From Hydrolagus affinis (lineage: Eukaryota), in the NCBI GenBank assembly GCA_012026655.1, contig JAAILG010001340.1, positions 1-64,000 of the forward strand: a stretch of 64,000 nt of DNA. Direction: 5' to 3'. A program made the position numbers and the translations under genes. How positions within the stretch are numbered: the stretch's first letter is position 1; each line of letters opens with the position of its first letter. Under the pieces are notes generated by a model. It was given only the letters and a program-made list of their open reading frames with translations, was not told where the DNA came from and ran no database searches. This document shows, one piece after another, positions 3,704-8,210 of the stretch.

Positions 3704-4577
3704 TTTTTCCTTTAGATTTTGAAGAAAGATTAACTGGCCAGTAGGTGGGCCCCACCAAAAGGCAATGGACTTAACTCGAAACAGCGACCACTGAGCCAAG
3801 TGGGTTTACCTTGTGCTGACATTCACTGCAATCAACAAATTATTCTTCAACTTATTCGCATAATCAGTCTCACGCGGTGTCTCTTTTTGTTAATGTACTA
3901 AAAACACGGTCCATTCGGGTTTAAATCAGTGTAACCAGCTAACCATATAATCAATTAGACGTGGACAATAAAAAAAAAGTTCATTTGGGGGGCGGGGAGT
4001 ATTTTGGTAATAATGTTGATTGCAAAACGACAGCTACATCTTCTGCGCACACACACACACAAACTTATTAATATCCCCGTTCAAACAGTTCAATTTTTAA
4101 TTCTTAATGAAAGGCACTTCAAACAATACAAGCAACAGATACTAGACACTGAGCAACTCTCTGCAAGTCAGTCAGTCAGTCAGTCATCTGGTGTCTTCTA
4201 GGGCTGTGGAGACTGAGTTTCTTCTGACTGGAGGATGGTGGAGTTTGGAGTAATTTCTCTGTACTTTTCTCCCCCCATCAAACTTATTAGACGCTGAAAC
4301 ACCGTAGATCAGTGAGTGAGTGAGTGAGTGAGGAGTGAGTGTGAGGCTGCCTGATTTTCTGATCGCCGATGAAAAATGCTGGCTGATTCATGTCGAGGGT
4401 AAAATGTTTTTTTGTTTTCTTTTTTTAAACCCCCCTCCCCACAAAAAACACACACACAAAAAAGTTTTCAACTGAAGCTTAAAGAGTTTTCAAAGTAGGA
4501 TCAGACAGTCAGTCAGACAGACACAGGTCGGAAAAAGGTTGCTCGAGTCTCTTGAAATTGTTTGAGAAACAAAGAAG

Positions 4578-4583
4578 TTTATT
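4578..4583 (-). terminator. Candidate distal polyadenylation signal of INPP5A (proximal candidate at 4703-4708)
   Basis: tttatt on + is AATAAA on -. U/GU-rich sequence follows on the - strand. Confidence 0.55.
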
Positions 4584-5915
4584 TCTATGGCCCATAAACG
4601 TCACATAAGTTGAATCTCTGATTTAATAAAATAGTTTACAGTGTACGGCTATTTGATACTGGGCACATTGGTACAGTTTATCTGCACACTGGCGTTTTAC
4701 TCTTTATTGTCTACAAACGAGAATGATCTCACGGTCACAGCCACATAAATTCTGCTGGCAGACACAAAATCATTTCCAACCGTAGTGATTTATACGAAAA
4801 CACGCATCAATCCACTGCTATCAAGTAGCTTGTGAACTTTGTAGTGTACTAAATTAAATCGATAGAGGAAACGTTTAGGCATTGGCTGTGTTCTCCATCT
4901 TCAGATCTAATCACCTTTTAATGCTGTAAGAAGCAGCGTGTAAAATTTGCAATATTAGCGCTGGCTGGAGATTAAATATAGGTGATACAATTTTTACCAA
5001 ATTTGCAATTTGCATCTTCAGGTTTGAGGGCTTTATATACAATCCATTAAAGCACAATTAGCAAGCTAATACCAGAAGGAAATATCCTCCATTATAATGT
5101 GTCCATAGATACTTGGCACTATATGCAGTAACAAAAATAGACAGAAATAGTTTACAAAAAAATCTTATAAGATATCCATCCTATTAAACTTCACATTCTG
5201 AAACTTGGCATCACATAGGAATAAGTTACAATAGAAGTACTTAACACAGACAGACTGCTATTCACGTGTGGTGATTATAGTAAATTAGATATTTCATCAA
5301 CAATGACAGTCAAAGCTATCTATAGTATAGTTTGGGTGAGAAAATATATAGTTTTGTATATTCAATCAGCTAGGTATAGGAACTAAAAGTTGATATGTCA
5401 GACCATGAGCAGCCAGTCCTTCTGAAAGGAATTTCATTTAGGGGCTTTGGAAAGATTATATTATAAATTAGTTTGTTTTAAGTAGATATAAAAATGAAGA
5501 GAGCAGCTAATTTGTGATTCGAAATCGGATAAAATGTGGCAGTATGTAGTATATAACATGAAAATACCTAGCTAGCCTAACACAGACATACAATAAAAAT
5601 CTTAAAGGTAAAGAAAATATCAATAAAACCATCACTAAAAGTGAAATTTCACTCCTATACAATCCAATGTACAAAAAACTCTCTAGTACAGTATAGATAT
5701 ACAATTTCAGCATTGCACTTCATGAGTTTTACATAAGGAAACAGTTTCTTACATTGAATAGGGACACTGTATCAGTTAAAATTATAAATGTGAGATATTT
5801 AAAATGTGTAGTATATTCTACTCTTAGCGTTTGGCAACAAAACTGTGACACGTTTTAAAATTGTCCCACATTTAATTCAAGTGTCACAGGAACATATGAA
5901 ATGGTGAGGTATGTG

Positions 5916-5949
5916 TGGCTGTCTTGTATAGATGGCTGTCTTGTATAGA
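5916..5949. repeat. Perfect 2 x 17-bp tandem duplication in the INPP5A 3'UTR
   Basis: tggctgtcttgtataga at 5916-5932 and 5933-5949. Confidence 0.9.
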
Positions 5950-6093
5950 CTTCAGACATCAAAGCAGAATGGATGATGAGCAGTCTGAAATGCGGCACTA
6001 AGAAATACAGTATCAACATCAGTTGAATTACAAGGATGTTTGCAAGTTCTCCTGTCCTGCTCCCGCACCTTTCGTTCGCTTGCCTCAAATAGA

Positions 6094-6143
6094 CTAGAAG
6101 GCAGGTTCTCGAAAGATCTTCTCATTTCTTTGACATCTTTTGC
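6094..6143 (-). CDS. INPP5A: INPP5A putative alternative C-terminus (G)KRCQRNEKIFREPAF*, lacking the CaaX box
   Basis: Internal donor GGGGCAG|gtaaac (exon end 6334, phase 1) plus the acceptor at 6143 gives G|GC AAA AGA TGT CAA AGA AAT GAG AAG ATC TTT CGA GAA CCT GCC TTC TAG in frame. Confidence 0.6.
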
Positions 6144-6289
6144 CTGTGAATGTCACACAAAAATATTCAACACAGCATGTTAGGTAATAAAACTGACAAA
6201 AATATAAGAGTGTTAACATGTCAATTAAATACTGAAAAGAACATGGATGAATAGTAAAAGAAAATAAAACATTAATATTTACCACCACA

Positions 6290-6370
6290 TCACTGCACCA
6301 CACAACAGTTGCGCATATTTGCATTAGGTTTACCTGCCCCAGCAGCTATTCGAAAGAACAGGAAGACAGG
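6290..6370 (-). CDS. INPP5A: INPP5A last coding exon of the CaaX isoform: PVFLFFRIAAGAGKPNANMRNCCVVQ*
   Basis: Acceptor ttttgtacag|CCT. 81 nt including TGA at 6292-6290. Matches the human C-terminus PVFLAFRIMPGAGKPHAHVHKCCVVQ (recalled) with the farnesylation motif CVVQ. Confidence 0.95.
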   Translation of the reverse strand, partial: PVFLFFRIAAGAGKPNANMRNCCVVQ

Positions 6371-7817: not shown

Positions 7818-7886
7818 CTTGTGGTCCCCCATGCAAACATTTGGTCCCATGTTGTCATAGATAACTGACTTCTCATCATTTTCTGC
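7818..7886 (-). CDS. INPP5A: INPP5A exon: AENDEKSVIYDNMGPNVCMGDHK
   Basis: ttttacag|GCA...AAG|gtaaag, 69 nt, phase 0/0. Contains the GDHK of the catalytic 5-phosphatase motif (DHKPV once spliced). Confidence 0.95.
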
Positions 7887-8210
7887 CTGTAAAACAGAGA
7901 TCACTTTCTTTACAGACAGAGTGGCTATTCACATAAAGATCCCTTCACAATTGCTCAGCTGCAAAGACAAATATTTAGTGCCAGTGAGAAAGCAATCTAC
8001 AAGAGTTTCAACAAACAAGAGGAGATGGAAGGCCAACCTTTATGTGGATCTCTGCAGAATGCCACAAACTACATACAATTTGCTGCAGCTTTTGTACACT
8101 TGGGATAATGCACTATGTGGAAATAAAATGCCCTCAACCCTAAACTGGAGTAACCTTCATAGCATCAATTATACAAAACGATATATAGCACACAAAAAAA
8201 TCTTTAGGAT

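Follow-up and report, generated by a model that had tools for sequence, protein, structure and literature searches.

The INPP5A gene of the chimaera Hydrolagus affinis carries two splice donors, 51 nt apart, in the exon that encodes its CaaX box, and our analysis points to a real and ancient alternative C-terminus of the enzyme, probably that of a minor isoform. In the reading that we favour, and in which we place fair confidence, use of the distal donor gives the lipid-anchored enzyme ending in CCVVQ, while use of the internal donor likely gives a minor isoform with the same catalytic domain and a selected 16-residue tail, predicted to lie off membranes.

The window, meaning the whole 64,000-nt stretch of DNA analysed here, carries the 3′ half of INPP5A on its minus strand, with exons mapped from ~49045 to 6094 by tblastn with Callorhinchus milii and shark proteins. 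The tblastn segments match C. milii INPP5A at 86-100%, the lower values coming from flanking intron, and the catalytic-domain exon at 16527-16408 matches it at 100%. The 5-phosphatase domain PF22669 is present on the retrieved INPP5A proteins P0205, P0217 and P0219. The C. milii UniRef models P0001-P0003 carry intron-derived stretches (window 57873-57817, 6430-6371 and 7683-7624) that differ slightly from the window's own letters and look like annotation artefacts. The features of the locus are as follows.

~49045-48961, 32837-32739, 32646-32566, 22301-22242 and 16528-16417, minus strand: further INPP5A coding exons (tblastn, C. milii and shark proteins).
7818..7888, minus strand: upstream coding exon ending GDHK, joined to 6370 (tblastn; 6370/7818 joint in 3/3 putative RNA contig sets).
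6334..6370, minus strand: part of the CaaX exon common to both isoforms, 37 nt, encoding the last predicted beta-strand of the phosphatase fold (sequence; strand E389-394 of the skate model; aligns to the end of the SHIP2 domain).
6328..6336, minus strand: internal donor CAG/GTAAAC, exon end 6334, use of which would excise an intron of 190 nt together with the CaaX box (sequence; use annotated in orthologues, absent from a relative's contigs).
6283..6333, minus strand: alternatively included 51-nt segment, comprising the 14-residue CaaX tail, the stop TGA at 6292-6290 and 7 nt of UTR (sequence; 51-bp difference also in mouse).
6293..6307, minus strand: codons for the CCVVQ C-terminus (sequence; in the human counterpart Cys is palmitoylated and the next Cys farnesylated, according to the portion of PMC12450637 consulted).
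6277..6285, minus strand: distal donor GTG/GTAAAT, exon end 6283, the donor used in RNA contigs (139-nt skip, 3/3 contig sets).
6144..6282, minus strand: last intron, 139 nt, with the acceptor common to both isoforms (sequence, contigs); a CTAAC near 6183-6179, picked out by eye, is presumably branch-like.
6094..6143, minus strand: dual-use start of the last exon, 3′UTR in the CaaX isoform and the 16-residue tail (EPAF end) plus TAG in the other (sequence, codon comparisons).
4534..6093, minus strand: 3′UTR common to both isoforms, with AATAAA at 4708 and 4583 (the run X1 contig covers 4534-6138).

An earlier note on this DNA had proposed the donor pair, and its coordinates all hold: an exon start at 6370, donors at 6334 and 6283 and the acceptor cacag/GC at 6143, with the distal donor lying 7 nt past the stop (TGA 6292-6290, exon end 6283). 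Both products also translate as stated there, the alternative stop being TAG at 6096-6094. Counted from 6370, the exon is 37 nt long with the internal donor and 88 nt with the distal one; the latter leads to a 14-residue tail ending CCVVQ and the former to a 16-residue tail ending EPAF, without a CaaX box. As 51 is a multiple of 3, the CaaX stop is in frame with the alternative tail, and read-through of the TGA at 6292-6290 would end at the same TAG. In a rough donor matrix, the internal donor scores 3.93 and the distal one 2.44, and they are the sole positive-scoring GT sites in 6372-6140. The upstream intron has 6 sites in 8.5 kb that are as good as the internal donor, a rate of ~0.06 per 88 nt; that donor is therefore by itself only mildly unusual, and comparative data carry the case. 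Under the rule of junction-dependent decay neither stop should trigger degradation, and both mRNAs would be expected to escape it, since the CaaX stop precedes the last junction by 7 nt and the alternative stop falls within the last exon. Two AG sites on the minus strand at 6231 and 6192, with good pyrimidine tracts, lie within the 139-nt intron and are unused in the contigs; INPP5A models in sturgeon, bowfin and char appear to take other acceptors.

The orthologue set comprised 447 proteins from three protein searches and three cluster look-ups, a tool-listed sample rich in teleosts and birds rather than a census. Within it, 228 proteins end in a CaaX box and 101 in the internal-donor tail; the exon is skipped in 20, 61 stop short of GDHK and the rest have other ends. 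Three proteins (P0278, P0357 and P0204) were removed manually before the tail count, and most isoform records are automatic models. The tail is exactly 16 residues long in 80/101 records, or 44/60 distinct sequences, from sharks, rays, teleosts, frogs, salamanders, squamates, a turtle and birds as well as from macaque, lemur, squirrel, bats, cats, sheep, deer, hare and horse among mammals. This retention of frame and stop from sharks to birds bears out the suggestion that the switch is ancient. RefSeq X1/X2 pairs with both tails are found in catshark, skate, frogs, axolotl, lizard, cuckoo and tilapia. All three human INPP5A entries retrieved end in the CaaX box, and none of the four C. milii proteins retrieved has the alternative tail. 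The first 13 residues of the window's tail are the commonest residue at each position (a tie at position 7).

Tail length is altered in the other 21 of the 101 records: 11-12 residues in salmonids, 20 in lungfish, 24 in cricetids, 25 in goat, 36 in whales and 40 in pig, with two others. Cricetid rodents and one bird-like record (P0147, P0164, P0088) shift frame at about the same late point of the tail; in rodents the result exceeds the CaaX tail by 10 residues, in agreement with mouse proteins of 422 versus 412 aa. GAGK, which had been thought a maintained junction, is not universal: the first two tail residues are GK in 80 records, GR in 10, GN in 5, AK in 4, DI in 1 and DK in 1, and sharks have GAAK. 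The mammalian isoform with GAGKRCQR that the earlier note mentioned does exist in database models, namely P0156 of macaque, P0403 of mouse lemur and P0164 of hamster, although the tail runs on beyond those residues. P0127 (Monopterus) and P0128 (Clarias), which share 53% and 47% identity with skate, represent a divergent INPP5A-like protein that ends a few residues past the last strand without a CaaX box and is possibly a permanently unprenylated paralogue.

For codon comparisons, the 50 nt of DNA were read back from two frames of one species, the alternative tail and the exon-skip model one base out of frame, which left 2-4 solutions; 11/572 combinations of the two were compatible, all within one clade. 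Differences from the window are mostly synonymous in the tail frame for crow (synonymous 8.0/10.7, or 0.74 per site; non-synonymous 5.0/37.2, 0.13; Fisher p 4e-4), chicken (9.0/10.2, 0.89; 6.0/37.8, 0.16; p 3e-5) and mullet (9.3/10.0, 0.93; 8.7/38.0, 0.23; p 2e-4), the crow and chicken comparisons being mutually non-independent. The terminal exon thus passes the test of codon-level conservation that the earlier note had set. Read in either of the remaining frames, all three pairs give a pS lower than pN. Third positions take 8/13, 10/15 and 14/20 of the differences from crow, chicken and mullet (p 0.035, 0.009 and 0.0009), and when the differences were scattered at random, at an unchanged transition share, so few residue changes arose with p from 0.013 to 5e-5 over all 8 solutions. 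The signal is weaker in pairs that do not include the window (p 0.013, 0.054 and 0.072).

The exon-skip frame of the same DNA provides a comparison. Skipping of the whole CaaX exon (7818 to 6143) is annotated in birds, turtles, crocodile and mullet, and its products run for 24-71 residues in that frame (20 records). Their identity to the window is 5-10/17 before the tail's stop and 1-3 after it (16 sauropsid proteins). Because differences are mostly synonymous in the tail frame only, similarity ends at the stop and skip-frame lengths scatter, the tail is coding and under purifying selection, summed over deep branches; selection in present-day chimaeras does not follow from it. The isoform itself is already in databases and in one mouse paper, and what is new is the evidence of protein-level selection.

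Structural models place the switch outside the catalytic domain. The model of the skate alternative isoform, of mediocre quality (mean pLDDT 62.7), puts the last strand at 389-394 and the junction at 399, with residues 403-414 at pLDDT <50, and SHIP2 aligns up to residue 394; solved structures include only distant 5-phosphatases and no INPP5A entry. Because the last strand precedes the junction and the SHIP2 alignment ends at 394, both donors fall after the phosphatase fold in this model and the exon skip removes its last strand. Given that loss and its variable length, the exon-skip product is likely non-functional. In human INPP5A, the accessible part of PMC12450637 reports farnesylation at C409 and palmitoylation at C408, and describes the unprenylated C409S mutant as leaving membranes, becoming nucleoplasmic and damping Ca2+ oscillations poorly. 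As the alternative isoform loses both lipidated cysteines, an active, unanchored enzyme is the default prediction for it by analogy.

The earlier note had stressed the basic character of the tail, which does not survive as a conserved property, the net charge ranging from -1 to +5 over the 44 distinct 16-residue tails; in the window a hand count gives +3 for the alternative tail versus +2 for the CaaX tail. Polybasic membrane anchors of the KRAS4B type rely on a strongly basic cluster, and with such a range of charge the INPP5A tail, unlike them, has no conserved cluster of this kind. Better kept, and overlooked by that note, is the very end of the tail: Glu at -3 and Leu at 0, each retained in 40/44 tails, are among the best-kept positions and point to a candidate C-terminal ligand. 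A class I PDZ ligand, defined as C-terminal X-S/T-X-hydrophobic in the sections of PMC7138185 consulted, fits 23/44 distinct tails, those of elasmobranchs, amphibians, sauropsids, squirrel, lemur and horse (ETTL, ETAL, ESSL). The motif is lacking in the tails of teleosts, which have EAPL ends, and in those of macaque, bats, cats, sheep and hare, and the window's own tail fails it with EPAF, which has Pro at -2. Because the motif spans elasmobranchs, amphibians, sauropsids and three mammals, with a T-to-S exchange in squamate tail ends, its distribution across taxa, read without a tree, suggests that an ETTL end is probably ancestral. An ETTL end would also agree with the third-frame proteins of sturgeon, which do not by themselves establish it.

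These patterns allow a bolder but tentative reading, which as a whole we think doubtful: that the 51-nt donor shift has, since the origin of jawed vertebrates, been a regulated toggle by which INPP5A receives either a lipid anchor, made of farnesyl and palmitate, or a PDZ-scaffold anchor, ETTL, and that this PDZ end was lost later in chimaeras, teleosts and many mammals. If true, the enzyme would be directed either to bulk membrane or to a soluble pool or PDZ-built receptor-PLC-IP3R complexes, and farnesyltransferase inhibitors would not act on whatever CaaX-less form is left.

Transcript evidence is dominated by the CaaX form. In a close relative (organism A, with 53 differences from the window in 1605 nt of the last exon), all three putative RNA contig sets show the 7818/6370 joint and a single 139-nt skip, the CaaX junction. 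These sets come from runs X1, X3 and X6, which are guessed to be RNA and whose contigs skip both introns. The skip is drawn by the alignment at 6138/6278, and its sole GT-AG placement is 6282-6144, which would imply a T at 6142 in organism A, a change synonymous in the tail frame. A DNA control, run X16, covered none of the exons. The 190-nt skip (6334^6143) was found in 0/3 of these contig sets. The contigs show that the CaaX form dominates in organism A; because contigs drop rare forms, absence of the alternative form does not follow. In mouse, primers across the site yield 272 bp (CaaX) or 221 bp, the same 51-bp difference as in the window (PMC7046734, supplementary file 1), and RT-PCR of cerebellum and prefrontal cortex, in the part of that report consulted, gave the 272-bp product only, the 221-bp product being undetected. 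The idea that the mouse AAV rescue used the CaaX-less form, its reverse primer ending at the B-isoform stop, was rejected on the same portion of the paper: this primer sits in the last exon, which both isoforms have, and the 272-bp product was the only one observed (PMC7046734). Proteins called on run assemblies, independent of annotation, do carry the alternative tail (bullfrog P0249, passerine P0234 and the Logan-only P0418). In bullfrog, P0249 occurs on 18 contigs versus 100 for the CaaX protein P0248, a hint only, as these are counts of contigs and not reads; by hand count, 23 Logan-flagged proteins reaching this region end in the CaaX box and 3 in the alternative tail.

By tally, 7 differences between the window and organism A that are not displayed probably fall within 6072-6138 (67 nt), or ~10% versus 3.3% overall, and there are none in 6278-6370 and 7818-7888. 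The codons concerned are not placeable, and the probable excess would count against strong present constraint in chimaeras. It is among the points that would fit a vestige, an isoform that was functional in early jawed vertebrates and still is in elasmobranchs, amphibians and sauropsids, whereas in chimaeras and many mammals it is decaying, so that the internal donor here gives little or no useful protein. The window tail has lost S/T at -2 (EPAF), the internal junction is absent from organism A's 3 contig sets, rodents, whales, pig and goat show a frameshift or stop loss, and in the part of PMC7046734 available the short form is undetected in mouse brain. Against this, the internal donor outscores the distal one, and the window keeps the commonest first 13 tail residues and the stop in place even though its synonymous sites differ by 74-93% from those of birds and mullet. 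We consider decay of this extent in the chimaera unlikely.

It is highly improbable that the tail reflects splicing noise together with a conserved RNA element, such that the Ala-Gly-Lys codons bring the GT with them, annotation picks up rare reads and the 50 nt are kept for a non-coding reason. The dominance of the CaaX form in all the transcript evidence seen here would agree with this, as would the frequency of donors this strong, which at 0.06 per 88 nt are not very rare; an RNA element, however, predicts neither the concentration of differences at third positions in the tail frame alone nor the end of conservation at the stop, and the codon pattern largely refutes it. Least credible of all is stop read-through, in which ribosomes on the CaaX mRNA pass its TGA and continue in the tail frame up to the TAG and this, not splicing, keeps the tail, for the context TGA TGT GG is no strong read-through motif, no plain read-through product is among the retrieved proteins and spliced internal-donor products are widely annotated and present on run assemblies (P0249, P0234, P0418). 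The in-frame continuation found in the window, the 51-nt spacing that mouse also keeps according to the accessible part of PMC7046734 and the missing short RT-PCR product there would be compatible with it.

Under the favoured reading of a minor, selected isoform, distal donor use yields the lipid-anchored CCVVQ enzyme, the form seen in RNA, and internal donor use would exchange the CaaX box for the 16-residue tail, with the product predicted in cytosol or nucleoplasm. Catalytic activity would be kept because the tail lies outside the fold, and loss of farnesyl and palmitate would weaken IP3 removal at the plasma membrane. The ancestral tail, with its probable ETTL end, could dock on PDZ scaffolds, an end that the chimaera would have lost. 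IP3/Ca2+ signals are terminated by INPP5A, whose lipid anchor determines where it acts; the enzyme matters in cerebellar ataxia and, in the portions of the literature consulted, is a proposed farnesyltransferase-inhibitor target in GNAQ/11 melanoma. A CaaX-less isoform selected across jawed vertebrates would give cells a genetic route to move the enzyme off membranes, and a 16-residue tail with a candidate PDZ end is directly testable. Frog, chicken or catshark would be better models for this tail than mouse, a poor choice given the frameshift in rodents. That the isoform is already in databases limits the surprise.

Among the entries listed, the literature on INPP5A yielded no study of the alternative tail's conservation, selection, PDZ-like end or PDZ interaction, though most subscription journals lay outside the search and the supplements of other splicing or proteomics papers may list the event; the parts of PMC7555182, PMC10834251, PMC9683706 and PMC4832260 consulted hold nothing on the alternative tail. 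Two products, with and without the CaaX box, as in a splice-controlled prenylation switch, are present in the window sequence, in paired orthologue models and in mouse. Among the closest described cases is mouse Inpp5a with its isoforms A (412 aa) and B (422 aa; PMC7046734, in the part consulted), in which, as in the window, one gene gives two C-termini through a 51-bp difference; because this difference is identical, the mouse donor pair is presumably the same as the window's. The rodent tail differs in having 24 residues through a frameshift (hamster P0164) versus the ancestral 16. The paper did not tie the isoforms to prenylation in the part consulted, the word 'farnesyl' occurring nowhere in its main text (PMC7046734). 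The RefSeq/Ensembl 'isoform X1' entries of INPP5A (414-415 aa; sharks, skate, frogs, salamanders, lizards, birds and teleosts) represent exactly this event with equal tail length; they are automatic models, and no functional study of them was found.

Other genes make a similar choice by different means; the descriptions that follow draw on excerpts of the papers cited. Lamin A/C, like INPP5A, is one gene in which a splice choice gives a CaaX or a CaaX-less product with different membrane association (PMC13296569). Lamin C, however, takes its tail from the following intron and both lamin proteins are abundant and proven (PMC13296569), whereas in INPP5A a 51-nt donor shift opens a frame in the 3′UTR exon and the second protein is putative. 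In OAS1 p46/p42 the splice form likewise decides the enzyme's prenylation and endomembrane targeting, but through a human splice-site SNP and geranylgeranylation (PMC8357416), whereas INPP5A would form both products from one allele, across jawed vertebrates. The behaviour predicted for the CaaX-less isoform resembles that of INPP5A C409S, which is off membranes, nucleoplasmic and weaker on Ca2+ oscillations, although that mutant is engineered, overexpressed and without the alternative tail (PMC12450637).
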